A stretch of 44,102 nucleotides of DNA from a virus: the UHGV virus genome UHGV-0016039; one strand, 5' to 3'. Under the pieces are notes generated by a model. The model worked only from the letters and a program-made list of their open reading frames with translations, was not told where the DNA came from and did not search any database. A program made the position numbers and the translations under genes. Positions 2,913 to 43,946 of the stretch are shown here, piece after piece. Within the stretch, counting starts at the first letter, position 1, and each line of letters begins with the position of its first letter.

Positions 2913-3002
2913 CCGCTTAGGCGCAACCAAGTAGATTAGCAACCAAGCCGAACGGGGTGGCTTCCAATAACCCCGATACATGTGAAAATGAGGAATTGGA
3001 AA

Positions 3003-3791
3003 ATGGCTAAAGTCAACCTGAAAAATGTGCGCGTATGTTTCCTGAAAATTTGGGAACGTGATACCCCTAAACAGGATGGACAAAAACCGGCATACCGCGC
3101 CGTGATTCTTCTTGATAAAGAAGACCCGCAGGTGGACAAAGTGGAGGCGGCAGCGCGCGCAGTGCTCACCGACAAGCTGAAATCCGAGAAGAATGCCGAT
3201 AAGTGGATGGACCGCCACTACGCCCAGGATTCTAAGGAATGTGCAGTTCGCGACGGCGACGAGCGCGATGAAGTAACCGAAGAGTTCGAAGGCATGTTGT
3301 ACATCAACGCCAAATCGTTCAAACAGCCTAACATCCAAACGTCACTGGGCGAGAAGCAGACCGAGCAAGGTCTGACCGTAGACGGCGACGAGATCGAAGG
3401 CCAGGAGATCTACTCCGGTTGTTATTGCAATGTGTCCCTGGATATTTGGGCGTGGAACAATACCAACGGCAAGGGGCTCGGGGCCGGCTTGCTGGGTCTG
3501 CGATTCCGTGAAGACGGCGAAGCCTTCGGGGGTGGCGGGTCTTCATGTTCTGACGAAGACCTGGACAACGATGACGAAGACGAAAGCCCGCGTAAGTCCA
3601 AAAAGTCAAAACGTCGTGATGACGATGACGAAGACGACAAGCCGCGTAAGTCCAAAAAATCCAAGCGCAGCGATGACGATGACGACGACGACGAAGACGA
3701 AAAGCCTCGCAAACGTCGTAAACCACGCGATGACGAAGATGAGGACGACGAAGACGAAGACGAAGCACCACGCAAACGTCGCCGCCGTTAA
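3003..3791 (+). CDS. DUF2815-type phage ssDNA-binding-like protein with C-terminal D/E-rich and PRKSKK repeat tail
   Basis: ATG 3003 preceded by GAGGAA; N-terminal MAKVNLKNVRV..F motif; gene order DUF2800-DUF2815-PolA. Confidence 0.7.
   Translation: MAKVNLKNVRVCFLKIWERDTPKQDGQKPAYRAVILLDKEDPQVDKVEAAARAVLTDKLKSEKNADKWMDRHYAQDSKECAVRDGDERDEVTEEFEGMLYINAKSFKQPNIQTSLGEKQTEQGLTVDGDEIEGQEIYSGCYCNVSLDIWAWNNTNGKGLGAGLLGLRFREDGEAFGGGGSSCSDEDLDNDDEDESPRKSKKSKRRDDDDEDDKPRKSKKSKRSDDDDDDDEDEKPRKRRKPRDDEDEDDEDEDEAPRKRRRR
3556..3788 (+). repeat. in-frame charged tandem repeats (DDDDEDD-KPRKSKKSKR units) at C-terminus of SSB-like protein
   Basis: repeated gacga(t/c)ga.. and ccgcgtaagtccaaaaa units visible in DNA. 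Confidence 0.65.
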
Positions 3792-3809
3792 GGGCAAAGC
3801 CCACTATTC

Positions 3810-3834
3810 AAGCCCGCTTAATGCGGGCTTTTTA
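3810..3834 (+). terminator. rho-independent terminator
   Basis: stem aagcccgc/gcgggctt followed by ttt. Confidence 0.65.
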
Positions 3835-3849
3835 ATAGGACAATGAAAA

Positions 3850-4020
3850 ATGCGTATTAAAGCCAGCGAAGTAAAAGTCGGAATGCAAGTATGGTCCAAA
3901 TTGCTGGGCGAGTATTTCACCGTTGCCGAGATTCGCAACAACGGCGAGGAGATCACCCTTTCCGACGGTATCTCCTCCATGATCGGCAGCGCTGACGCCG
4001 TAGTGAGGATAAAGCAATGA
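3850..4020 (+). CDS. small hypothetical protein (56 aa), stop overlaps PolA start (ATGA)
   Basis: ATG 3850 to TGA 4018-4020 read by hand; below the ORF-track length cutoff. Confidence 0.35.
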   Translation: MRIKASEVKVGMQVWSKLLGEYFTVAEIRNNGEEITLSDGISSMIGSADAVVRIKQ

Positions 4021-6308
4021 AAGACTTCGAACGCCTATTTCTCGACACAGAGACATTCAGCGATGTGGACCTGAAGAAAGTCGGCGCTTACGCCTACGCA
4101 GAACACCCGTCAACCGAGATTATGATTTGCACCTACGCCATCGACGAGGGCCGCGTGCAGACATGGGACGCCACTGAATCCCCCACGATGCCGCGTGAAC
4201 TACGCAAGGCGCTCCGCCATGTAACCCGCAAAAAAGCAAAAATAGTGATGGCGAACGGCCTCCTGTTTGACCGCCTGGTTATCCGTGAAAAGTGGGGCAT
4301 TGACCTGCCGGTAAGCCAGATCGAAGATACCATGATTATGGCCTTCCGACATGCGCTGCCGGGTGGCCTTGATATGCAATGCCAGGTGCTGGGCGTGGAC
4401 GCAGAGCACGCGAAGGATAAGGCGGGCAAGGCGCTGATTAAACGATTCTGTAAGCCTACCCCTAAGACCTACAAAATCCGCCGCTACACGCGCGAGACTC
4501 ACCCGGAAGAATGGGCTAAATTCCTGCGCTATGCCGCGCTGGATACTATCGCAATGCGTGAAGTCTACTGGCGCATACCGGACTGGGGCAACTCCCCGAA
4601 GGAAGACGAAATCCTGCTTATCGACCAGTTGATTAACGACCGCGGTTTCTATGTGGACGTTGACCTAGCTAACGCCGCGATCAAGGCGGTGCAGGTGCAT
4701 AAAGAAGAATTGAAGGAAGAAGCCTGGGAGCGTTTTGGCGGTAAGCTAACCGGCAACGACTTCCTGCCAATCCTGCGTGATATCGCCCCTGCGTTCACTA
4801 TTCACAACGCGCAGAAATCAACGCTGAATGACTTGCTGGAAGACCCAGACTTCCCCGACGAGGGCAAGGTGCTCATTGAGATGCGCCTCGGTGCGTCATC
4901 AACGGCATCGACTAAGTACAATCCGCTCGTCAATGGCCTGTCCGCCGATGGTCGCCGCCGTGGTTGTCTTCAGTATGGTGGGGCAAAGCGCACGCTACGC
5001 TGGGCCGGTAAAGGCTTTCAACCTCAAAACCTGGCGCGTGGCGAGTACAGCGACGACCACGAAGGGAAGATTAAACGCCGCGAGGGTGAAAGCGACGTCT
5101 CGTTTTGGGTCCGGTCGCACATGCTCACCAACGGCATCAACTCCCTGTTACGCGGGACCGCACACTGGGCGTATGACATATCGAAGCTAACGGCATCGAC
5201 CGTTCGCGGGTGCATTATTCCTGCGAAGGGTAAGAAGTTTGTCGTAGCGGACTACTCCAACGTGGAAGGGCGTGGCCTTGCCTGGATCGCTGGCGAGAAA
5301 ACAGCGCTCATGGTGTTTAAGGCCGGTCGCGATATCTATTGTGAGACTGCCGGTAAGATGTTCGGCCTGGACCCGGACTACATTAAAGCCAACCGCAAGG
5401 ACTTACGCCAGATCGGTAAGGCGTGCGAATTGGGACTGGGCTATGGTGGCGGCGTCGCGGCGTTCTTGCAGTTCGCTAAAAACCTGGGCCTCGACCTTTA
5501 CACTATGGCGGACGTGATGAAAGGCACGTTCCCGGATCACATTTGGGCGGCGGCGAAACGTGGTTATGAGTACGCTCGCATTAACGAAGCGAAGCGCCCG
5601 CCGAAGCCGGGCAAGAAGGACGAGCGCCCAACATACATACTGCCGAAAAACGTATGGCTTACTTGTGACGCAATCAAACGTATGTGGCGTGAGGCTCACC
5701 CGAAGACGGTAGCCTTTTGGGCCGAGCTTGAGGACGCTGTGTTGTGTGCAATCCGCAATCCGGGCAAAGCATACTGGGCTGGCGCGAACGTTCGCCCGGA
5801 CGGTAGAAAAGCGCTCAAGATTGTCCGTACGAAGGCGAAGCACGACCCAACCTTTGACGAGGAGCGCGACGACCCGAACGCCGCGGGGTGGTGGTTGAAA
5901 ATTGAGTTGCCGTCGGGGCGCATCATGAGCTACCCCGGCATCGCGCTGTCTGTCACGACCGAGATTGACGAAGACACCGGCAAGAAGCGCACCAGCACAC
6001 GCATTAAATATCAGGGCGAGAATCAGACGACGCGCCAGTGGGGATTCCAGTATACCTACGGCGGCAAACTGACGGAGAACATCGTACAGGCGTTGTGCCG
6101 CGATATTCTCGCATGGTCCATGCCTGGCGTTGAAGCTGCGGGGTATAAAATCGTCCTGTCGGTGCATGATGAATTGATCACAGAAGTGCCGGACACCGAC
6201 GACTACACTACCGAGGAACTTTGCGCGCTGATGTGCGACCTGCCTATTTGGGCGAAGGGCTTCCCACTTGCCGCCGAAGGCGACATCATGTACAGGTACA
6301 GGAAGTAA
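4017..6308 (+). CDS. DNA polymerase, family A, with 3'-5' exonuclease domain
   Basis: N-terminal LFLDTETFS exo motif; RQIGKACELGLGYGGG (motif B K...YG); VHDELITEV (motif C). Confidence 0.92.
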   Translation: MKDFERLFLDTETFSDVDLKKVGAYAYAEHPSTEIMICTYAIDEGRVQTWDATESPTMPRELRKALRHVTRKKAKIVMANGLLFDRLVIREKWGIDLPVSQIEDTMIMAFRHALPGGLDMQCQVLGVDAEHAKDKAGKALIKRFCKPTPKTYKIRRYTRETHPEEWAKFLRYAALDTIAMREVYWRIPDWGNSPKEDEILLIDQLINDRGFYVDVDLANAAIKAVQVHKEELKEEAWERFGGKLTGNDFLPILRDIAPAFTIHNAQKSTLNDLLEDPDFPDEGKVLIEMRLGASSTASTKYNPLVNGLSADGRRRGCLQYGGAKRTLRWAGKGFQPQNLARGEYSDDHEGKIKRREGESDVSFWVRSHMLTNGINSLLRGTAHWAYDISKLTASTVRGCIIPAKGKKFVVADYSNVEGRGLAWIAGEKTALMVFKAGRDIYCETAGKMFGLDPDYIKANRKDLRQIGKACELGLGYGGGVAAFLQFAKNLGLDLYTMADVMKGTFPDHIWAAAKRGYEYARINEAKRPPKPGKKDERPTYILPKNVWLTCDAIKRMWREAHPKTVAFWAELEDAVLCAIRNPGKAYWAGANVRPDGRKALKIVRTKAKHDPTFDEERDDPNAAGWWLKIELPSGRIMSYPGIALSVTTEIDEDTGKKRTSTRIKYQGENQTTRQWGFQYTYGGKLTENIVQALCRDILAWSMPGVEAAGYKIVLSVHDELITEVPDTDDYTTEELCALMCDLPIWAKGFPLAAEGDIMYRYRK

Positions 6309-9584: not shown

Positions 9585-9827
9585 ATGAAATCATTATTTT
9601 TCGACTACGACGGCGACCTTCGATTTTGGGTGCTCCTCACCCTCATGATTGCCGGCTGTATTGGCATACCTTCGACGGCTATTTACTACACGGAACGCTA
9701 CGAATGCAAGACCGTGTATGCCGAGCAAACCGGACGCAATACCCAATGGCGCTATGGTGTCTGCTGGGTGGAGATGAACGGTAAATTTATCCCACGCAAT
9801 GAAATCCGCACCACGGAGATTAAATAA
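9585..9827 (+). CDS. small membrane protein (80 aa, one TM helix)
   Basis: ATG 9585 preceded by GGAG; FWVLLTLMIAGCIGIPSTAIYY. Confidence 0.5.
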   Translation: MKSLFFDYDGDLRFWVLLTLMIAGCIGIPSTAIYYTERYECKTVYAEQTGRNTQWRYGVCWVEMNGKFIPRNEIRTTEIK

Positions 9828-19745: not shown

Positions 19746-20482
19746 TGCCATTCTGTGATATCCCACGGTAAATCTTTATGACGTACCCATTTAACCACAT
19801 TGTCGCGGAAAAATCCTGCCCGGAAGGGGATCACGCTCGACAGGCTGCCGTAGATATGGTGTAGTAGTTGGTTGCCCGGAAGGTAGATTCCGGCATGGTT
19901 AGGCACTGGCGCGCTAATCTGCATGATGACCATCGCCCCAGGCGTATTCTCCTCGCATTCCCTGAAGCCTGCACCGTACCAGTTATCCATGTACAGGTTC
20001 TCCCCAGTCTCCCACCAGTTGTACGGCACGCGGAAGTCTGGCAAATTTACTCCCTGCTTTTTGTGCCAGTCCATAACTAGGCCATAACAATCCGTAATTC
20101 CGAGAACAAATCGGCGGCCTACCAGCGGCGGGTCTTCCGGGTCGATCTCGATAAAGTCGCCATATTCGTTAGTGATGGTCCAGACGACGCCGCTGCCGTT
20201 GCAGCCGTTGACGTCACCCAATGACGGGGTTAACTCGCGCTGACCGGGGTGAGAGTGGACTACGCGCACAACGTCGCCCATATCCTCGGCATCCATCCAG
20301 TCCATATCACTAATCGTGAAAGCGTCTTTGCGTGAGCGCACGCCGGTCGGGTCTTCAAACACGTTAAGGCACGGGACGAATACTTGCTTACGGCCCACCA
20401 TGACAACCAGGCCGCAGGCTTCTTCCGGCAGACATGCCGCGACGTGTGCGGCGATATCGCTTTTAACCTTCTTCGTTAACAT
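19742..20482 (-). CDS. tail tip assembly protein, lambda K-like (MPN/JAMM plus NlpC/P60)
   Basis: HSHP JAMM-like motif and DCYG cysteine motif. Confidence 0.8.
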   Translation of the reverse strand: MLTKKVKSDIAAHVAACLPEEACGLVVMVGRKQVFVPCLNVFEDPTGVRSRKDAFTISDMDWMDAEDMGDVVRVVHSHPGQRELTPSLGDVNGCNGSGVVWTITNEYGDFIEIDPEDPPLVGRRFVLGITDCYGLVMDWHKKQGVNLPDFRVPYNWWETGENLYMDNWYGAGFRECEENTPGAMVIMQISAPVPNHAGIYLPGNQLLHHIYGSLSSVIPFRAGFFRDNVVKWVRHKDLPWDITEWQ

Positions 20483-20484
20483 GA

Positions 20485-21273
20485 CTACCCCTTAATTAAT
20501 CTGGACCCCGGAAAGCCGCCGAAGTCCAGCACCGCCGCTTTCGGGTCCGCAAGCCCTTGCCCAAATCTAAGATAACAGTCGGACAAACAGCCGCCGCATC
20601 GGTCCATGTTCATCGCGATGACTTCGTTTCCGCGTTCGTCGTAATACTTGATGCCAGGCTTCGCAAGGTTCCACGTGCAGCCGTCCCCGCTGGCGTACTT
20701 CCCATTTAACGCCCATTCGCACATGTTCATGATCTGGCGGCGGGGAACTACTTGCCCCTCCATATCAGCGGGTGAGGATAATGCGAAGGTTATTTGCTTG
20801 CCCGGATTGCGCCCGACCTGTGAGTCGATGTAATACTCCTGGACACGTTTTTGCGTCGGGTCTGGGTCCGACCCGTTATCCAGGAACTTAGCAAACGTGT
20901 CGATTATTTCAACCTTCGCGCCAAGTAGCTGGTCATGATTCAACGACAGCCGGGTGATAATGCCGCCAATATCGACGATGGTTAGCTGCGGTTCTGCTGC
21001 CGTTGATGTGGAGAAGTTAAGGCCGGATAGATCGAAGGGCCAGAATTCGAATTCCTGCCCGCCGAAGAAGATGGATTTAGGTTTTAGCTTGTCCTCGTCA
21101 CCGCCTGCGGCGGCAATATCCTCGGCAGTGTGCGGGATAAAGCAATAGTGAAAATAGTGATGACCCGCGCCGATCGCGCCGTCGCCTGGTTCCACGTCCT
21201 GCGCGTCAATGTGAATCAGGCGAACGCGTCCCGATGGGTCAAAGCGCGTCGCCTCACGATATAGTTTATTCAT
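20485..21273 (-). CDS. minor tail protein, lambda L-like
   Basis: position; C-terminal Cys cluster CGGCLSDC. Confidence 0.75.
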   Translation of the reverse strand: MNKLYREATRFDPSGRVRLIHIDAQDVEPGDGAIGAGHHYFHYCFIPHTAEDIAAAGGDEDKLKPKSIFFGGQEFEFWPFDLSGLNFSTSTAAEPQLTIVDIGGIITRLSLNHDQLLGAKVEIIDTFAKFLDNGSDPDPTQKRVQEYYIDSQVGRNPGKQITFALSSPADMEGQVVPRRQIMNMCEWALNGKYASGDGCTWNLAKPGIKYYDERGNEVIAMNMDRCGGCLSDCYLRFGQGLADPKAAVLDFGGFPGSRLIKG

Positions 21274-21905: not shown

Positions 21906-24548
21906 TCATCGTTTGTAAAGTACACCACCCGGTTTCGTCGCTTTCACGATCTCGGCCTTCACCGCTTCGGTGATTTGCTTGCCGAACGCCTGCGCGGTAC
22001 GGGGGTCCGGCCCGCTGACACTGGTATCTGTTTTACCGGACCCCGTGTAAACGTTAGTCGTCACGACCATACCACCGCCTGCGCCAGACGCGGCAACACC
22101 CAGTTTCCCGTCCGGCCCGCGCTTCAGTGGCATGATGGCCTCGGGTCCAGCCTCGCCCATCAATCCCGCGCCCTTAGCGAACGCCTGGACGCCATAACTG
22201 AAAAAGGTAGGCTGACTTACCACTTTCCCCGAATAGGCCGCGAGATTGCCACCTGCGTACGCGCCGCCGTCCGCATTCTTAGTGAGGCCCGAGAAGATAG
22301 CGCCGAACAATCCGTTTTTGCCGCCGTCGCCACCGAAAGCGCTAACGATGGACTTGAATGCCTGCGATGTAGCCAGCTTGATTAATTCGCTCAGGATGGA
22401 CTTAACCATATCCTTTGCGTTCAGCTTGCCAGTCTCAAAAAACTCGTTCATCGTGTCCTGCATAGCGCTGAACGTGAATTTTGTGAGTGACGCCATCTGC
22501 GTATAGCCGTTACCCATTTCATCCACGCTATCCTTAAGCCCACGGCTGAATCCATCCCATAGTGAGGCGTTAGCACCGGTCTGTGCTTCCTGCACTTCGC
22601 GCAGTTTAGACACCGCCAGATCAATATCGGTATCACTAGCGCCCCCCCGCTTCAGGCGGTCAATTAGCTGCAATTCTTCACGCAGGTTTGCCGCTTCGCG
22701 AGTGGAAAGCGCATAGCCCGCCGCGGTGGCTTTTAGCTCGGCGTTCTGGTTCTTAACGAAGGCGTCGATCTGCGCGTGCGCCTTGACCTGCTTCTCTTTC
22801 GCGTCCAGCAATTTGGCTTCTTCGACGATCTGCTCGCGGACTTCCTTCACGCGCCCGAATTCGACCATCTGCTGCTTTTCTGCTGCCGTTAGTGCCCTTT
22901 CTTTGCTTGCTGCGATTAACTGCTCATTATCCGCGATCAGCTTGTTTAGGGCCGCTTGAGCGCGTTGCGTTCGGGTCTGCGTCGAGGCGTTGGCTTCGAT
23001 CTGCTTTCCAGACTCACGAAGCTGTGCCAGTTCGCTTCGCGCGACTTCCAGCATTTTCAGCCCGGCATCGACTCGAACAGCGGCGGCCTTCTTCGGGGCG
23101 GGGTCTTTGTAACGCTCGTTTACCTGCTTCACCGCCTCGGCAAGCTCTTTCTCGTCAATCACGCCGCGCTTATTAAGCAAATTGAGGCGGGCGATCTCGT
23201 CGGCGCGCCTCTTCGCGTTGGTTGCGTACTCCTTCTCAAACGCGGCGCGGTCGCGGGCGGTGCGGTTGGCCTCTTCGTTCGCCTTTGCTGCTTCTTCCGC
23301 GGCGCTGGCGTTGCCCCGCTCGGCACGGTTGCGCAGGGTGAGCGACGCCACCACCTTCTCCTGGGCGACCAGTTCGCTGTAAAGCATGTTAATACGCGCT
23401 TTCTGCGCTTCGGTCATCACACCACCGGCAGCGTTTACCGCTTTCATCTCGGCATAGTAAGCCGTGGTCAGTCGCTGCAATGATTCACGCGCTTTCATCT
23501 CTGACTCATTCGAGGACTGCGCGCGCCCAACATCCAGGATGGCGTCCCACATAGATTTAGCTGCCGATGTGACGACGTTCATCGAACGCTCAAGCGTACC
23601 CATGTTGGACTTAATATCGTTGGTCATAGTGGTAAACGACGCCGCGGCTGTTTTGTTAGCCAGCGCCACCGCTTCGGTTTCGCGACCCATATCCACAAGC
23701 GACTGTACCTGCTGGATCTGCGCTTCGTTTACGACGTGATACTTATCCGCCAATGCCCGTAAGCCGCCTACTGGGTCGGTTGACAGCTTCGCCACCGCCG
23801 CGACCACATCCTCGATCGGCTGGCTGGACACCTTCGCGAAGTCATTAACTACCTTCGCCAGTGCGCCGAAGTCACCACCCGCTTTCACACCCGCCGCCGC
23901 CAGCGCCTGGATTGTGTCACGCGTCTTGCGGAATGATCCGCCCATGCGCTCGGCGTTCTCGGATAGCACCAGGATCTGGTTTGCAGTTAGGCCTGAAATG
24001 TTACCTGACAGCGCCAGCGTCTTGTTAAGCGCTGCGACTTGGTTCTCTGCGCGGGACGTAATTGCTACGCCAACGCCTAACGTTGCCGTTACCGCGGCGA
24101 GGCCGATCCCTACGGGGCCGAGGAAGCCCGCAACAAAACGCAGCGTGTTTCCCAGTCCGCCAAACGCCCCAGTAAGCTGCGGTAACTGCTGAAGCATAAC
24201 GCGGTGTACCGGCATCCCCATCTCAAGCGTAACTGCGATATCCTGTAACTGGAATGCGGCGTTACGCGAGGCAAAGCCCAGGTTTTTAGTCGACATGCCT
24301 AACCTGTTGGCGAGTCGCTCCTGTTTTGTCATGCCGTCGGCGGCGCGCTGCGATTCAGTCGCTAACTTTTCCATTCCGCCAGCGGCGTCACTCGTCACCT
24401 TTTTGGATTTGCCGAGGGTGTCGTTTAATTTCTTAACCTTGTTTTCTGTGTTCTCGGATTTCTGTGCGAAGGAGTCCAGCACAGTATTTGCCGTTCTGAT
24501 TTGTGCAACATCCGCCTTTAGCGTGATGCCTGCTGCCTGATCTGCCAT
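21906..24548 (-). CDS. tail tape measure protein
   Basis: 880 aa, long helical/coiled-coil region, C-terminal Gly-rich segment; position after G/G-T. Confidence 0.85.
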   Translation of the reverse strand: MADQAAGITLKADVAQIRTANTVLDSFAQKSENTENKVKKLNDTLGKSKKVTSDAAGGMEKLATESQRAADGMTKQERLANRLGMSTKNLGFASRNAAFQLQDIAVTLEMGMPVHRVMLQQLPQLTGAFGGLGNTLRFVAGFLGPVGIGLAAVTATLGVGVAITSRAENQVAALNKTLALSGNISGLTANQILVLSENAERMGGSFRKTRDTIQALAAAGVKAGGDFGALAKVVNDFAKVSSQPIEDVVAAVAKLSTDPVGGLRALADKYHVVNEAQIQQVQSLVDMGRETEAVALANKTAAASFTTMTNDIKSNMGTLERSMNVVTSAAKSMWDAILDVGRAQSSNESEMKARESLQRLTTAYYAEMKAVNAAGGVMTEAQKARINMLYSELVAQEKVVASLTLRNRAERGNASAAEEAAKANEEANRTARDRAAFEKEYATNAKRRADEIARLNLLNKRGVIDEKELAEAVKQVNERYKDPAPKKAAAVRVDAGLKMLEVARSELAQLRESGKQIEANASTQTRTQRAQAALNKLIADNEQLIAASKERALTAAEKQQMVEFGRVKEVREQIVEEAKLLDAKEKQVKAHAQIDAFVKNQNAELKATAAGYALSTREAANLREELQLIDRLKRGGASDTDIDLAVSKLREVQEAQTGANASLWDGFSRGLKDSVDEMGNGYTQMASLTKFTFSAMQDTMNEFFETGKLNAKDMVKSILSELIKLATSQAFKSIVSAFGGDGGKNGLFGAIFSGLTKNADGGAYAGGNLAAYSGKVVSQPTFFSYGVQAFAKGAGLMGEAGPEAIMPLKRGPDGKLGVAASGAGGGMVVTTNVYTGSGKTDTSVSGPDPRTAQAFGKQITEAVKAEIVKATKPGGVLYKR

Positions 24549-24617
24549 TATGCAGTCCCCTTTTTTATGCAGTTGCCGATGGATATTGTATCAGCGATTT
24601 CAAAACAAACCTTATTC

Positions 24618-24932
24618 AGTCTCAGACGAGGGGGGCCATTGACCCCCGTCTAGTCTGAAAGACTGGGGTGCTGTCCCGCTGTCCCGATCGGCTAAAAACC
24701 GCGGCAGCACTGGCGGGGACGGGGTGCTGTCCCGCTTTGTCCCGCCCCTTGTTTGTCCCGCTTTTTGTCCCGCTTACTTTATGCAATAAAACTGCATATA
24801 TATGCGTATTTATGGGGTGAGACAAAACGGGGCGTCCCGCCTGTCCCGTTTTGAGTTTATGCAATGAAAGTGATTAGATATGCGGTTTTACAGAGGCGGG
24901 ACAAAACGGGACGTCCCGCCTGTCCCGCTTCA
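24618..24932. repeat. composite repeat copy A: GC hairpin, GTCCCGC/GCGGGAC iterons, TTTATGCA-N-TGCAT palindromes, internal ~75 bp tandem duplication
   Basis: near-identical to 41078-41260; at least 8 GTCCCGC copies. Confidence 0.7.
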
Positions 24933-25609
24933 TTATGCGGGGTTCTGCTGCGCCATTTCATCAAGCGCGATTCGTTCCATTAGCTTGATATCTTTAAACG
25001 CGCGCTGCTCGTTTTCGATACCGTGCATCTTAAATAACCACTCCAACACGCCGTAGTCGATGCCGTATGCGCCACCAAATCCGGTGCGCCATTGCGTGGC
25101 GCAATCTGTAAAGACTGCGACTACCTTCGCGTTGTCGGGCCATAGCGCAACAGGCGGACAAACATCTTCGGGGGCCGCACCCCATAAACTTGCTGCTAAA
25201 TCTTCGGAGGGGGGCGGCGGGCCATAAAAGCGTCGCGCCGCCTCAATTAGTTTTTTTCACGCAACCCCATCAGTTCGAGATAGTACGACGTGTGGAACAC
25301 ACCGAACGCGCGGGGATAGTTGACCACCAGGCGGCGGACGTTCTCCGCGTTAAATTCGTCCGGCAGATTCCAGCCTTCAGCGACGTGCATGATGGCCTCA
25401 ACCATAACGTTAAAGCCGTCCGGGTCATTGTCGTCATATTCCGATAGCTTTCGTTCGGTGTCCTGCATGGTCTGCGAAAACTCGTCGATAGGTCGGTGGC
25501 GGACGGTAAACGTCATCTTGCCCGGTTCGTTCTCGCCAGGGCGCGGGATCTCAATCGGCAGCTTAAAGGTTGGCTTAGGGTCAAGTGTGAAGAGTGGTGC
25601 TTTAGCCAT
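24933..25609 (-). CDS. tail assembly chaperone G-T fusion, product of predicted -1 ribosomal frameshift (105-aa T extension)
   Basis: slippery A_AAA_AAC at 25250-25256 in G frame; -1 frame open for 105 codons to TAA at 24933-24935. Confidence 0.6.
25247..25609 (-). CDS. tail assembly chaperone, lambda G-like (0-frame product)
   Basis: ATG 25609 (ORF track starts at GTG 25657); acidic protein between major tail and tape measure. Confidence 0.75.
   Translation of the reverse strand: MAKAPLFTLDPKPTFKLPIEIPRPGENEPGKMTFTVRHRPIDEFSQTMQDTERKLSEYDDNDPDGFNVMVEAIMHVAEGWNLPDEFNAENVRRLVVNYPRAFGVFHTSYYLELMGLREKN
25250..25256 (-). other. -1 programmed frameshift slippery heptamer A_AAA_AAC
   Basis: seven consecutive A (T on + strand at 25251-25257) ending G ORF as cgt gaa aaa aac taa. 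Confidence 0.65.
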
Positions 25610-25623
25610 CGTAATATTCTCCA

Positions 25624-25647
25624 ATAAAAAGGGGCCGTGCTGGCCCC
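25624..25647 (-). terminator. rho-independent terminator downstream of major tail protein gene
   Basis: ggggcc-gtgct-ggcccc followed by ttttt on - strand. Confidence 0.5.
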
Positions 25648-25677
25648 ATATTATCACTCGCTATTTAAGCCACCAAA

Positions 25678-36428: not shown

Positions 36429-36641
36429 TTAAACGGCGCGACCGTAGTATCTGGTCAACATGCTTTCTACTTCGCTTATAGCGCCTTCTGTGTAGCGTAT
36501 TTGCGATAGTATCTCGATCCGCTCGCTAATAGACATGCCTATTGCCGCTGCCGTTCGCTCGAATCGGCGCAAGCCTTCAAGCTGTTTGCGTAGCTCTTTC
36601 AGGCGGGTGGCCTGCGTGCTCATGAATACTTGTCTGATCAT
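36429..36641 (-). CDS. hypothetical protein (70 aa)
   Basis: ATGA overlap with upstream phosphoesterase gene. Confidence 0.45.
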   Translation of the reverse strand: MIRQVFMSTQATRLKELRKQLEGLRRFERTAAAIGMSISERIEILSQIRYTEGAISEVESMLTRYYGRAV

Positions 36642-37780
36642 TTCAACATTTCCGGGCTAATGGTTAAGCGCGCTACTTCGCCGTAGTTGGCGCTATAGGT
36701 GATGACGTTTGCACTGCGACCGGACATCCAACCGCCACGGCTTGCATATGCATCTTTCGCGGCAAGCGTCCGGTGCTGTTCAACAATCATGTTGCGGGAT
36801 TCAACAATCTTCTGGTGGTGCAAGTGGCCTACGTGCGCGTAGCTGTACTCACTTGACCCGAAAGCCTGTCTGAATTTAGAAATCATGACAGGCTCGATGG
36901 CGTCAAATCGTGCTTTATGTCCGTGGTGGAAGAACAGCGTTGTTTTACCGTGCTGCACCATTTTGTAGACGTCCGGGGATGTGTCCACATCAACGCGCGG
37001 CTCGTTCTCGTACAGGGTATTGAACATCTCAGCCAGCCAAATCATACCGGACTCGTCATGATTACCCTGGACGATTAGTAGTTTGACCTTATGGTGTTTT
37101 TGCAGCGCCAGTTCAACCACGTTTCGCACCATGCGAATCATGTAGCGGACCAACTTCTGGTAGCGGGTATCGGCATCCAGTACGTGACCGCTGGCAGGGG
37201 TAACGGCATCGAGGCTGTCAAAGTGGGCCATATCACCGAGGATATTGATTACGGCAGTGCCCGCGTCCGGCGCGCGTGCGAAGGCTTCGACAAACCAGCG
37301 GTAGAACAGGTCTTCGGCGATTGCCATATCCCAGTCCTCGCCAGTCTCCTCGCCCCATGCCAACATGCCCAGGTGGAAGTCTGACACGGTGTACAGGTTG
37401 AGCAAATCAAGCGCCTGGATCGGTACTGGCGAGGCTTTTACTGGCGCTGCCGGTGTGATTTCGCTGTTCATACCCTCGACAACAGCGCGCATAGCTTCAA
37501 GCTGGCGCTCCTTGTCCTGCTCAGTGATGACCCAGGACATGACCTCTTCGCCATTGCCGCGCACCAGGGCCGATACGCGCTTAACCCCAAAGCCATCGGC
37601 AACTCGCTTGCGGATTACGGCATCGTTGCCGTGTCCAATGCCTTTTTTCGCCAGGCGGGCTTTCCGCATATAGACATTGCGTAGGGCAATCCCGTATTTC
37701 TTCGCAATATCTTTCGAGGTAGTGCCGGATTGTAATTCAGCAATCAATTGCTCGTCTGTGATTTTAGTTTGCGGGTGCAT
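36638..37780 (-). CDS. calcineurin-like metallophosphoesterase (SbcD/Mre11-like motifs) with N-terminal HTH
   Basis: VSDFHLG, GDMAHFD, GNHDE, HHGH motifs; N-terminal TTSKDIAKKYGIALRNVYMRKARL; ATG 37780 with AGGAAG. Confidence 0.7.
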   Translation of the reverse strand: MHPQTKITDEQLIAELQSGTTSKDIAKKYGIALRNVYMRKARLAKKGIGHGNDAVIRKRVADGFGVKRVSALVRGNGEEVMSWVITEQDKERQLEAMRAVVEGMNSEITPAAPVKASPVPIQALDLLNLYTVSDFHLGMLAWGEETGEDWDMAIAEDLFYRWFVEAFARAPDAGTAVINILGDMAHFDSLDAVTPASGHVLDADTRYQKLVRYMIRMVRNVVELALQKHHKVKLLIVQGNHDESGMIWLAEMFNTLYENEPRVDVDTSPDVYKMVQHGKTTLFFHHGHKARFDAIEPVMISKFRQAFGSSEYSYAHVGHLHHQKIVESRNMIVEQHRTLAAKDAYASRGGWMSGRSANVITYSANYGEVARLTISPEMLK

Positions 37781-40918: not shown

Positions 40919-41077
40919 CCAATATTAATCACGCGTATGAAAAAGTTGATCGCTATCTGCTGAATCTGCAAACCGCATTTTTCACTTTCCATTCTGCAAC
41001 TCGCATTGGTTGCCGAGTTCATCGACGACCGCAATTTGCATCATGTTGCCGTGCGGTATGCAATCCTGGATTTTATG

Positions 41078-41260
41078 CAGTCTCAGACGAGGGGGGTGCC
41101 AGACCCCCCGTCTAGTCTGAAAGACTGGGGTGCCGTCCCGCTGTCCCGCTCCTCTGGAAGCCGCGTCATCCGGGGCGGGACGGGGGTGCTGTCCCGCTTT
41201 GTCCCGCCTCTGGTCTGTCCCGCCTTTTGTCCCGCTTGTTTTATGCAGTAAAATTGCATA
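41078..41260. repeat. composite repeat copy B (hairpin, GTCCCGC iterons, ATGCA-N7-TGCAT palindrome)
   Basis: near-identical to 24618-24800 except for a 35-bp substituted core. Confidence 0.7.
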
Positions 41261-41341
41261 ACTATTCACTATATCCACACTACACGGCAACCAATGCGAC
41301 CGACTAAAAGCACTCAAAATGGCAACCAATGCGCGCAGAAT

Positions 41342-43606
41342 TTAGTCTTTTAAGTCGTCATCGGTCGCAGAAAGCGTGGTGGGTATATTCGTTTTGATGA
41401 CGATATTCGACGACCCATAGATGGCCCCGGTGTGTGGGTCTGTATAAAAGCCGAGTACGCCGCGCTCCACCATATCGTCGATTGCCTTCGTCGATGTGCC
41501 ACCTTTTGCCAATCCCGCCTGGCGGACAATTGCCGATTTACTGAATCCGGTATGGTCCGGGTTATCTTCCATCAGTTTTTCCAGCGCCGCATAAAGCACT
41601 TTCTCTTTTTCGTTGCGCGGGCCTGCGGCGTTCTCGTCCTTAACTGCTGCCTTGCCCGCGGACTTCGCCTGCTCAATGGCGAACGGTGCCAGGGCAACTG
41701 GTACGAGGTAGAGAGTCTCGTCGCGTGGCGTGGATGCGATTGGCTTGACGTCCCAACCGGCAACCACATCGCCGAAGTCCGGCCCGGTGCTGGTGGACTG
41801 GTGGGCTTCGAACGCTTCGGACTTGCGGAGATCCACCTTAACCTTGCACTTGAGCAGGACGAAGCCGCGTGGCGCTTGCTTGATGCCGTTACGTGCCTTT
41901 TCGTGATACAGGTTCAATTGGCCTGGTTGGTTGTCGTCCGGCTGTTCCAGGAAGAACGCGGAATCAACAGCACCATGAAGCGCGCCGGACCCGCGTGGCG
42001 TTCTGCTGCCGTTTGCACCTTTCGCCGGGTGGTGGATGACGCCCGCACTGCCGCCTGTATTTTCCGCAATGGCTTTCAGCGCTTTGACCACTTCACCCAT
42101 ATCGCTGGCGTTGTTCTCGTCAAACGGTTTAGCATCGGCGGACCGCAGCGCAACAGTCTGGTTGAGGGAGTCGAACGCCACCAGGCCCACCGGTTCGCCG
42201 TTAGCGGTGCGGTTGATGAAGCTGATAACTTCACGCAAGCCGGATTTGCTGGTGATATCCCAGCCGCGAGATTGCAGGTCGATAATGTGCAGCTTGTCCA
42301 GGTCGTGCTCATATTTGATCTGCAGTGCTTCCTTACGCTGGTTGGAGGCTTCGCCACCTTCCGCATCGAAATAGAAGTTGTGGCACTGGACGACCTTCGC
42401 CCCGCCAAACGGAATACCGGCAGATACTGACGCCATCTGGCCCAGCACGTAGAACGACTTGCCGATGTTCGACTCACCGGCGAGATACCAGGTCGATTTG
42501 AAGTTGACCAGGCCTTCGATGATCGGGTCGTGCTTACTGAACAGTGCGACCGGCTCGTTGTCCAGGTCTGCATCAGTACACACGCCGTACTCGTCGCCGT
42601 CGCCAACCGCATCAACGATATGTTCATAGCAGGATTCCACTTCCTCGTCGTCCAGTCCCGGAAGGATGGCGGCGATTTGCTTACGTGACATGTTGTGCGG
42701 TTCGACGTTCAGGTGGTCCGGGATCCCGATAAGACGTAGCGCCAGGTGCTGGTGTCTGTTCAGTTCGGAACAGCACTCGTTTCCGGTGTGCATACACTTG
42801 AAACGGATCTCGCCATCCTTGACCATGATAGCGGTGGACCCTTCGCCGCTGTGCAGGTGTTCGTTCGGGCACGGCACTTCATAGCCCCGACCGGACGACA
42901 GCGGTTCGAATCCTGCCTTGAAGCACCAATCCAGAATACCGTCCGCCACGCCGTCATCGCCCTGGGTCAGTTCGCGGCGGACTTCCTCTTTCTCAACTCC
43001 CAGCTTGTCCGCCAGGCGGAGCAGACGGCGGACGCGGGCGCGCTTGCCGTAGTGGCACTTAATAACAGACTGCTGGTGTGGCAGGTACATCAGGCGGTTT
43101 GTGTCTTTCGTGCAGTCGTCGAAGTCCACATCTGACAGGCCCAGTTGGTGTAATAGCGCATACTGGACACGCCCCAGGTCTTCAGCCGGTACAGGCTTGT
43201 CGGTCAACACCAGGAAGCGAGCGCAACGCGTTCCACCTTTCAGTGGGTGACGGTCGCCGGTTGTGGTGTGAAATACGTGTTCCAGACCCGAGTCAATGAA
43301 CGCCTTACGGCAGCGGCGTAGGGTGCGGGTGTCGGTACGGTCAATATCGAAGAACAGGATCGAGCGGTCCACCGCGCTGGTCTTGCGACGTAAGCCGTCA
43401 CTGGTATAAGCCACAATGCCATCGGCCTTACGCTTGCGGCGCGCATACTCCGCTTTATCTTCCGTCTTGTTGATATGCACCGAGGATATTTCTTTCGCAT
43501 CATTAATAAATTCGAAAAACTCATCAGTGGTCATCTGGAAGTTTTCCGCCCTGGCTTTTTCGCCTTTTTTAGCGGGTCTTGTTACTGCGAATTTAATTAA
43601 GCTCAT
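41342..43606 (-). CDS. DNA primase / RecA-like (DnaB/RepA-type) helicase fusion protein
   Basis: Walker A AGESNIGKS, Walker B-like VAFDSLNQ, Cys/His cluster, 754 aa. Confidence 0.8.
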   Translation of the reverse strand: MSLIKFAVTRPAKKGEKARAENFQMTTDEFFEFINDAKEISSVHINKTEDKAEYARRKRKADGIVAYTSDGLRRKTSAVDRSILFFDIDRTDTRTLRRCRKAFIDSGLEHVFHTTTGDRHPLKGGTRCARFLVLTDKPVPAEDLGRVQYALLHQLGLSDVDFDDCTKDTNRLMYLPHQQSVIKCHYGKRARVRRLLRLADKLGVEKEEVRRELTQGDDGVADGILDWCFKAGFEPLSSGRGYEVPCPNEHLHSGEGSTAIMVKDGEIRFKCMHTGNECCSELNRHQHLALRLIGIPDHLNVEPHNMSRKQIAAILPGLDDEEVESCYEHIVDAVGDGDEYGVCTDADLDNEPVALFSKHDPIIEGLVNFKSTWYLAGESNIGKSFYVLGQMASVSAGIPFGGAKVVQCHNFYFDAEGGEASNQRKEALQIKYEHDLDKLHIIDLQSRGWDITSKSGLREVISFINRTANGEPVGLVAFDSLNQTVALRSADAKPFDENNASDMGEVVKALKAIAENTGGSAGVIHHPAKGANGSRTPRGSGALHGAVDSAFFLEQPDDNQPGQLNLYHEKARNGIKQAPRGFVLLKCKVKVDLRKSEAFEAHQSTSTGPDFGDVVAGWDVKPIASTPRDETLYLVPVALAPFAIEQAKSAGKAAVKDENAAGPRNEKEKVLYAALEKLMEDNPDHTGFSKSAIVRQAGLAKGGTSTKAIDDMVERGVLGFYTDPHTGAIYGSSNIVIKTNIPTTLSATDDDLKD

Positions 43607-43616
43607 TGCCGTGGCC

Positions 43617-43946
43617 TTACTTAAAAGTTTTATTATTGCGTACCCAGGAGCGCACTGTGCTCTGATTAATTCCGGTCAACTCGGCAATCATCGCCCACGA
43701 TTTTCCCTCGTCGCGCAAACGTATAACCTGCTTTTTGTATTCTTCCATTTCTTCATTGTGCTTTTGCAGCTTGCTCGCGGCCGTGCCGTTGAGCAATTCC
43801 AGCCTGGCGCGTAATTCTTTCTCGACACTGCGCAGTCGTTCGATTTCAAATAACACCGCCCCCACGGCATCTGTATAAGCCCATGACCGGCTTGTCTCAC
43901 TGCAAACAGTCTTCGTTAACATTTCGATTGCGCCGTTTACATTCAT
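43617..43946 (-). CDS. HTH DNA-binding protein (109 aa)
   Basis: C-terminal HTH-like WAMIAELTGINQSTVRSWVRNN; ATG 43946 with GAGGG. Confidence 0.55.
   Translation of the reverse strand: MNVNGAIEMLTKTVCSETSRSWAYTDAVGAVLFEIERLRSVEKELRARLELLNGTAASKLQKHNEEMEEYKKQVIRLRDEGKSWAMIAELTGINQSTVRSWVRNNKTFK

Follow-up and report, generated by a model that had tools for sequence, protein, structure and literature searches.

The stretch of viral DNA analysed here, UHGV-0016039 (44,102 bp; the window below), is a complete Dhillonvirus-type Escherichia coli siphophage genome, and it raises the question of why a non-coding element is placed inside a tail operon. Genes for the G/GT tail assembly chaperones and for the tape measure protein (TMP) usually abut or overlap. 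A preliminary description, made without database searches, had noted a gap of about 385 bp between the G/GT stop (24933) and the TMP start (24548) in the window, and we measured 384 bp. The element in this gap (copy 1) is probably an iteron-type origin module of the phage's own primase-helicase, of the self-loading type represented by Staphylococcus aureus pathogenicity islands (SaPIs) and P4, that was duplicated into the tail operon. Its architecture had previously been likened to replication origins or multi-site protein-binding arrays. The computational support for this idea comes from a twin module just downstream of the phage's primase-helicase gene, lineage-specific repeats in relatives, GTCCCG arrays abutting primase-helicase genes in unrelated phages, a SaPI-type layout, and a winged helix predicted at the end of the primase-helicase.

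In the + strand reading used for Table 1, copy 1 is a series of a compound hairpin, repeats and AT-rich boxes. The hexamer core GTCCCG occurs 12 times within 255 bp (10 on the + strand and two on the - strand). The longer form GTCCCGC, said before to be present at least eight times in both orientations, has nine exact copies in 24673-24928 (eight on the + strand, one on the - strand). Throughout the window it was counted 20 times against 9.3 expected, and none of 100 shuffles reached 20. Of the 29 GTCCCG hexamers in the window, 19 lie inside the two copies of the element. The other 10 are spread over about 43.7 kb, where roughly 26 would occur by chance, and this depletion is consistent with avoidance of stray binding sites. 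TTATGCA is also enriched (16 in the window against 5.7 expected), with four copies within the gap. The TGCAT palindromes noted earlier are present, with a TGCATATATATGCG palindrome in AT box 1, which is a candidate DNA-unwinding region. Two more TTATGCA boxes lie at the TMP start (24548-24571), one of them over the ATG as TGCATAATG on the - strand and the other in the 5' leader.

The GC hairpin of the preliminary description was located at 24624-24651, nested in AGTCT...AGACT. As single-stranded DNA, the compound hairpin folds with -14.1 kcal/mol (+ strand) or -13.4 kcal/mol (- strand), with z about -3.5 to -3.6, and repeat cluster B folds with -13.9 kcal/mol (z -3.95). The internal tandem duplication is real, but its period is 79 bp instead of the proposed 75 bp or so; 1.9 copies with 81% matches extend over 24778-24927. 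Each 79-bp unit consists of an AT-rich TTTATGCA box followed by four hexamers, an inverted pair and a direct pair.

Table 1 Features of the element, its second copy and the associated genes in the window.
Feature	Position	Strand	Remarks
Operator-like motif GCAACCAAT	35, 6562, 9504, 9521, 11420, 14433, 30498, 30511, 40351, 40884, 40915, 41005, 41287, 41322		
TMP gene	21906-24548	-	ATG at 24548; downstream of gap
Copy 1 (whole non-coding element)	24549-24932		384 bp between G/GT stop and TMP start
Candidate extended -10 promoter TGATACAAT	24585-24593	-	~40 nt upstream of TMP ATG; inferred
Compound hairpin	24617-24665		GC stem nested with AGTCT / AGTCT-GAA-AGACT
GC stem arms AGACGAGGGGGG / CCCCCGTCT	24624-24635 / 24643-24651		loop 24636-24642
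Direct repeat pair GTCCCGCTGTCCCG	24673-24686	+	two GTCCCG
Copy 1-specific spacer	24687-24722		ends in degenerate inverted repeat GGGGAC (24715-24720)
Four direct repeats (T)GTCCCGC	24729-24773	+	spacing 10, 16, 12 bp
AT box 1	24776-24815		72% A+T; TTTATGCA + TGCATATATATGCG palindrome
Repeat cluster A	24816-24849		two degenerate inverted + two direct GTCCCG; first unit of 79-bp tandem
AT box 2	24853-24890		68% A+T; TTTATGCAAT
Repeat cluster B, palindromic	24893-24931		CGGGAC, CGGGAC / GTCCCG, GTCCCG
Tail chaperone T frame	24933-25250	-	DUF1799, E 2.9e-21; transcriptionally upstream of gap
Tail assembly chaperone G	25247-25657	-	Phage_TAC_4
Copy 2 (core module)	41073-41265		hairpin 41078-41126; seven GTCCCG 41135-41235; AT box from 41238
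Primase-helicase, 754 aa, proposed initiator	41342-43606	-	AAA_25 E 2.4e-19; phrog_3228 E 0
Predicted C-terminal winged-helix domain, proposed repeat reader	41372-41644	-	~residues 655-745, then acidic tail DDDLKD

The second copy, reported at 41078-41260, was confirmed with a slightly wider extent (41073-41265). It is 83-84% identical to the core of copy 1 (24612-24803; 190 bp), and its end is about 75 bp downstream of the primase-helicase stop codon. Copy 1 consists of this core module and two additional units of an AT box and four repeats. The copies are 16.5 kb apart and have the same orientation within a leftward transcription unit, both at borders between modules. Between them, the hairpin, the hexamers and the AT box are nearly identical, whereas a 28-nt spacer is unrelated and yet conserved within each copy type. 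This pattern suggests that the duplication is old and that both copies are under selection. At the position of the degenerate GGGGAC of copy 1, copy 2 has CGGGAC.

A 701-bp query around the gap retrieved 159 phage records, 151 of which cover at least 80% of the query; phages mckay, bob and Opt212 are 97% identical to it. Alignment with related genomes, proposed earlier as a check, was carried out on 14 distinct Dhillonvirus sequences, and all 14 kept both the length and the motifs. The gap measures 383-396 bp (383-386 bp in 13 of the 14). Insertions and deletions of one nucleotide co-occur in the same genomes, and the overall length of the gap is therefore preserved. Invariant columns amount to 81% in the hexamers, 90% in TTATGCA and 86% in the hairpin stem, compared with 60% in the other non-coding positions and 43% in the hairpin loop. 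Concerted evolution of the two copies was rejected, as their identity is equal within a genome (0.82) and between genomes (0.81). Therefore, exchange between the copies is only patchy. The loop variants CCATTGA, CCACTGA, CCGCTGA and TGCCAGA (24636-24642 and 41097-41103) are split differently between the copies depending on the genome. When loci L012-L058 were compared, one genome had a variant patch common to both copies. The distribution of the variants suggests occasional gene conversion between these direct repeats. An apparent third place in some phage records proved to be split BLAST pieces, and phage bob has two clusters only. Neither 5,426 E. coli genomes nor the plasmids of PLSDB contained a copy of the element, leaving the idea of a satellite or decoy element unsupported.

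If the repeats are sites for the phage's own replicase, they should be considered together with the replicases of relatives. In four related primase-helicase lineages an array is located at the same place, with a different repeat in each. The counterpart of GTCCCG after the Dhillonvirus helicase gene is TTCCGCACA in Serratia phage Tsm2 (four copies, direct and inverted, at 9590-9649 of locus L063; primase-helicase 47% identical) and GGGGGAG / CTCCCCC in Salmonella phage SenTO17 (44% identical). The P0004 lineage has seven TGTCCG repeats together with an AGTCT..AGACT hairpin, a GC hairpin and TTATGCA boxes, and the P0006 lineage has six AGGGAT repeats, all six copies lying in the locus. The C-terminal domains of the five lineages can be aligned, while their helix-turn-helix (HTH) stretch differs. 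Repeat and domain thus change together across the five lineages, which is indirect evidence that the C-terminal domain may read the repeats specifically. The TTATGCA box and an operator-like motif (GCAACCAAT in the window, GCAGCCAACAT in the relatives) stay similar across these lineages. TTATGC(A) boxes adjoin the repeats in the SenTO17, P0004 and P0006 lineages as well. In Tsm2, a gap between structural genes (20356-20575) contains two more exact TTCCGCACA copies as an inverted pair at 20382-20411. Since we estimate that chance would give only about 0.3 exact copies per genome, a second remote site appears to exist also outside Dhillonvirus. The Tsm2 remote site also contains a GC hairpin and has short blocks of colinear similarity.

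A scan of IMG/VR with the exact 18-mer TGTCCCGCTTTGTCCCGC returned 56 loci, about half of them Dhillonviruses. Twelve of the 56 were coding coincidences with two hexamers only and were discarded. The remaining loci represent 12 unrelated lineages with G+C contents from 42% to 69%. In each of them, a central palindrome flanked by CGGGAC...GTCCCG is surrounded by 5-15 GTCCCG hexamers of both orientations. In 10 of the 12 lineages the array adjoins an AAA_25 primase-helicase gene, beginning at its stop codon or overlapping with it. The primase modules fused to AAA_25 in these 10 lineages are of the Prim-Pol or zinc-ribbon/Toprim type or are missing, and the proteins are only 23-26% identical to that of the window. 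The AAA_25-linked loci are L005, L008, L015, L026, L044, L045, L050, L051-53, L054 and L055 (G+C 47-69%, with L072 included), and the C-termini of their AAA_25 proteins share a W..FY...T.RKAFNRA...L..G motif outside Pfam coverage. A cultured example is Roseobacter phage CRP-701 (L072, 3180-3320), in which ten GTCCG repeats and a palindrome are located at the primase/helicase stop codon. As far as literature searches show, GTCC(C)G arrays beside primase-helicase genes would constitute an undescribed family.

Repeat arrays are also typical of pac sites and of centromere-like sites, so that the element might be bound by a small terminase or a ParB-like protein. At one of the distant loci (L035), an AT-rich stretch of 300 bp, with an array on each side in inverted orientation, immediately precedes a small-terminase gene (Terminase_2). 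In the window, however, the terminase genes (about 34.4-36.4 kb) are separated from the two copies by 5 and 10 kb, and no partition genes were seen; across lineages the arrays are linked to primase-helicases and not to terminases. We therefore regard a packaging or partition site as very improbable. A similarly slight chance is given to a structured non-coding RNA or a small protein gene. The hairpins are stable, some records annotate hypothetical open reading frames (ORFs) of 31-55 aa, and an ORF of 80 aa is open on the - strand. These ORFs are translated repeats that have no Pfam match and vary by 1-nt indels between genomes. The small structured RNA raised in the preliminary description found no support, as Rfam searches were empty both at the gathering threshold and at E<=1. 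The central palindromes of the distant loci, although symmetric, are often too short for an RNA hairpin.

Another reading is a region of transcriptional control, in which a regulator such as the 109-aa HTH protein (43617-43946) would bind GTCCCG and split the leftward operon, with the hairpin as attenuator and a promoter restarting transcription at TMP. Both copies, in the same orientation, mark module borders, one from replication to lysis/late genes and the other from chaperone to TMP. An HTH_23 / sigma-70 region 4-like protein is encoded beside the primase-helicase, and the stretch from the hairpin to the TMP ATG contains a conserved extended -10-like box, TGATACAAT. All 14 genomes have the block ATTGTATCAGC unchanged, with variation in its flanks. 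TGATACAAT was missed by a simple promoter scan, in which a -35 hexamer is obligatory and which gave only chance-level matches. However, the hairpin lacks a following T-run on both strands, and a terminator scan made no call there. The phage moreover has a separate and far more dispersed operator-like motif, GCAACCAAT. Its 14 exact copies (0.5 expected) lie for the most part within intergenic gaps or close to them, and palindromic pairs are frequent. The motif has the appearance of an operator, or of an element associated with promoters, that serves a phage regulator. In relatives this motif stays similar and the repeats vary with the helicase lineage. The unrelated GTCCCG arrays likewise track primase-helicase genes, with no homologue of the 109-aa HTH protein at those loci. 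Taken together, a transcriptional role may apply in part, but as the explanation of the element it seems unlikely to us. Five copies of GCAACCAAT surround copy 2 and none is found in copy 1. The copy at position 35 is placed between TTGACA and a -10-like box, and SenTO17-like relatives carry a similar motif, ATGTTGGCTG(C).

The protein proposed to read the repeats is the primase-helicase. It matches phrog_3228 ("replicative helicase-primase"), with weak primase PHROG matches over residues 15-177, and a domain search gave no Toprim or superfamily 3 (SF3) helicase match. The only relative among solved structures by sequence was RSF1010 RepA, at an E value (0.53) that is not useful. A single-sequence AlphaFold2 model of the whole protein was unusable (predicted local distance difference test, pLDDT, 36). 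With a 10-sequence alignment, residues ~660-735 were modelled as a helix-helix-helix-strand-strand core (pLDDT 64-77), and the top Foldseek matches of the C-terminal domain model were all winged-helix regulators, at non-significant E values. This model, of only moderate confidence, is a winged helix to which Cdc6/ORC origin-binding domains come closest. The homologues also end in an acidic tail. Close relatives of the domain are absent from the protein database, where two matches were obtained. An exhaustive HMMER scan gave five, among which a 2980-aa match is an adhesin-like repeat protein and probably spurious. The profile of the domain (41345-41689) also matches TALE-like BurrH repeats (motif GFsxxdIVkIAGxxGG; E 1.5e-23). 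This is a curiosity because the E value sums about 20 weak repeat matches, and the resemblance probably reflects a shared helix-loop-helix pattern. The proteins suggested earlier as binders (43617-43946 and 36638-37780) do not appear to be the best candidates, and the predicted C-terminal domain of the 41342-43606 product seems a better one. A comparison of the small HTH proteins did not discriminate between HTH and C-terminal domain as the repeat reader.

In SaPIs, the origin directly follows rep and contains 6-12 penta- or hexanucleotide repeats, with an AT-rich centre and at least two opposite-oriented repeats per side; the repeats are read by the C-terminal winged helix of the self-loading Rep (PMC9371898). 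The repeat numbers of the window resemble those of SaPIs and other phage-inducible chromosomal islands, with 12 GTCCCG in copy 1 and seven in copy 2, and the predicted model supplies the C-terminal winged helix of the initiator. In copy 1, AT box 2 is flanked by two + repeats (24834/24843) and two - repeats (24897/24907), and AT box 1 lies between four + repeats and, in the majority of genomes, two - repeats. Copy 2 lacks such opposite repeats around its AT box, and copy 1 is thus the better fit to the repeat and AT-box arrangement of SaPIs. As to location the relation is reversed: copy 1 lies 16.5 kb from the replicase gene, between tail genes, whereas copy 2 adjoins the replicase ORF, about 75 bp past the stop at 41342, as do the arrays in 10 of the 12 distant lineages. 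As in SaPIs, the repeat sequence varies with the replicase lineage and the proposed initiator would itself be the helicase. Unlike the SF3 Rep, the helicase core of the window protein is AAA_25 (RepA/RecA-like) with a fused primase; therefore, the system would be SaPI-like in its working and not a member by descent. It further differs in that the module includes a GC hairpin, that a larger second copy is present in the structural operon, and that the replicon is a virulent 44-kb phage instead of a satellite.

The distance of 16.5 kb from the helicase gene could also mean that copy 1 binds the primase-helicase without firing, as a titration or handcuffing site, as a roadblock to forks or transcription, or as a decaying duplicate of the origin. 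In plasmid iteron systems, extra repeat clusters serve copy control, and cluster A shows partial degeneration in the window and variation between genomes. Against this, copy 1 has the more complete origin-like structure, with flanked AT boxes and 12 hexamers compared with seven. Its constant length and conserved motifs across the genus argue against decay. We consider an array of this non-firing kind improbable.

The existence of two sites resembles P4. The ori and crr of P4 are reportedly separated cis sites with the same repeat, one of which is a tandem direct duplication with repeats in each unit. The window likewise has two sites (24612-24932 and 41073-41265), copy 1 with the 79-bp unit repeated 1.9 times, although here the tandem-duplicated site is the remote one. 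The repeats of P4 are bound by the C-terminal winged helix of its alpha protein (PMC4234260), and the window too encodes a single primase-helicase with a winged helix predicted at the C-terminus. No sequence relation exists to alpha, which combines Toprim and SF3, or to its TGTTCACC octamers, and the origin-binding-domain chain of P4 alpha was not among the sequence matches to solved structures. The oriV of RSF1010 (IncQ) is served by RepA, the founding member of the AAA_25 helicases, and contains repeats, an AT-rich stretch and the primase-read hairpins ssiA/ssiB. In the window, AAA_25, repeats, an AT box and a hairpin are all present, with only one compound hairpin in each copy; no RepC or RepB' homologue was seen, nor was one searched for. 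In RSF1010 the functions belong to three separate proteins, of which RepC reads 20-bp repeats. In pRN1 and BPP-1-type phages, a stem-loop origin lies just downstream of a primase-helicase-winged-helix gene (PMC4234260). Unlike the window, pRN1 has no repeats and its helicase is of SF3. Purely by analogy with RSF1010 and pRN1, we infer that the hairpin of the window could be a priming signal. In the core origins of SV40 and papillomaviruses, pentanucleotide-type inverted pairs surround a palindrome with an adjoining AT tract, and their reader is the origin-binding domain of a hexameric helicase that loads itself. The helicase superfamily, the DNA-binding fold and the host domain all differ from those of the window, so that this likeness is an analogy only.

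On the preferred reading of copy 1 as an origin module, the following mechanism can be proposed. The predicted C-terminal winged helix of the primase-helicase would read the GTCCCG hexamers, and subunits on opposite-facing hexamers flanking a TTTATGCA box would form rings and melt the box. The helicase would load itself, like SaPI Rep, P4 alpha and SV40 T-antigen. The N-terminal primase part would then make primers to be extended by the Pol I-type polymerase of the phage (4017-6308), perhaps recruited by the acidic C-terminal tail. The hairpin, extruded or single-stranded, may be a loading or priming signal comparable to the ssi hairpins of RSF1010 and the stem-loop of pRN1. Copy 1 would be either a second origin or a crr-like helper cooperating with copy 2, and the conserved extended -10 box downstream of the hairpin may restart transcription into the TMP gene.

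Several observations weigh against an origin module. The cumulative GC skew has no inflection at 24.7 or 41.2 kb; GC and cumulative skew track gene orientation. Copy 2, as mentioned, has no opposite-facing repeats across its AT box. The homologues of Kagunavirus, Jerseyvirus and Bas70 (32-34% identical) have no repeats after the gene, and a terminator and a convergent HTH gene follow it instead. The two-site layout was found only in Dhillonvirus and Tsm2, and each of the distant loci examined has a single cluster. Two of the distant arrays, L035 and L046, accompany Prim-Pol/DUF5906 (SF3-type) replicases and not AAA_25. These GTCCCGC arrays are located at 5470-5833 and 3707-3976, respectively, in contigs of 42-48% G+C. 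An HMM search and hhalign (probability 0.6%) detected no homology between the C-terminal domains of the Dhillonvirus helicase and the distant GTCCCG-linked helicases. The mean pLDDT of the C-terminal model is 55, and its Foldseek matches have E values of at least 0.06. Finally, literature searches found no paper on a Dhillonvirus origin and nothing on the GTCCCGC motif.

The genes of the window around the two copies are arranged on the - strand in the order HTH protein and primase-helicase (43.9-41.3 kb), lysis, terminase, head and tail, down to 12.6 kb. The G frame is connected to the T frame by a -1 shift at a slippery A_AAA_AAC near 25250, with the stop codon at 24933-24935. On the + strand, the ORFs 67-765 and 2982-3791 contain related tandem coding repeats (346-553 and 3546-3790), Asp/Glu-rich and then with KPxKSKK-type basic stretches.

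A broader proposal, which we put forward tentatively and hold to be possible rather than probable, is that Dhillonviruses replicate from two sites, an origin by the primase-helicase gene and a larger tandem twin in the tail operon, and that their GTCC(C)G module belongs, as one branch, to a widespread family of origins so far undescribed. The sites may act jointly, like P4 ori and crr, or fire independently, and the arrangement could tie replication to late transcription. The family would be used by at least three primase/helicase architectures, in phages of Enterobacteria, of alphaproteobacteria (Roseobacter) and of other, uncultured hosts. Few virulent siphophages have a known replication origin. 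Those without one include the present group of common coliphages, which counts BASEL phages Bas14-18 and SECphi18 among its members and is now used in studies of defence systems. For phage engineering, the gap between the chaperone and TMP genes should not be taken as a neutral insertion site. If our reading is true, it would provide a concrete pair of origin and initiator, and a simple rule for locating origins in many phage genomes, by looking for repeat arrays where AAA_25 primase-helicase genes stop. It would also offer natural pairs of repeat and winged helix with changed specificity for studying how DNA is read, and a rare case of an origin-like element kept in a tail operon.

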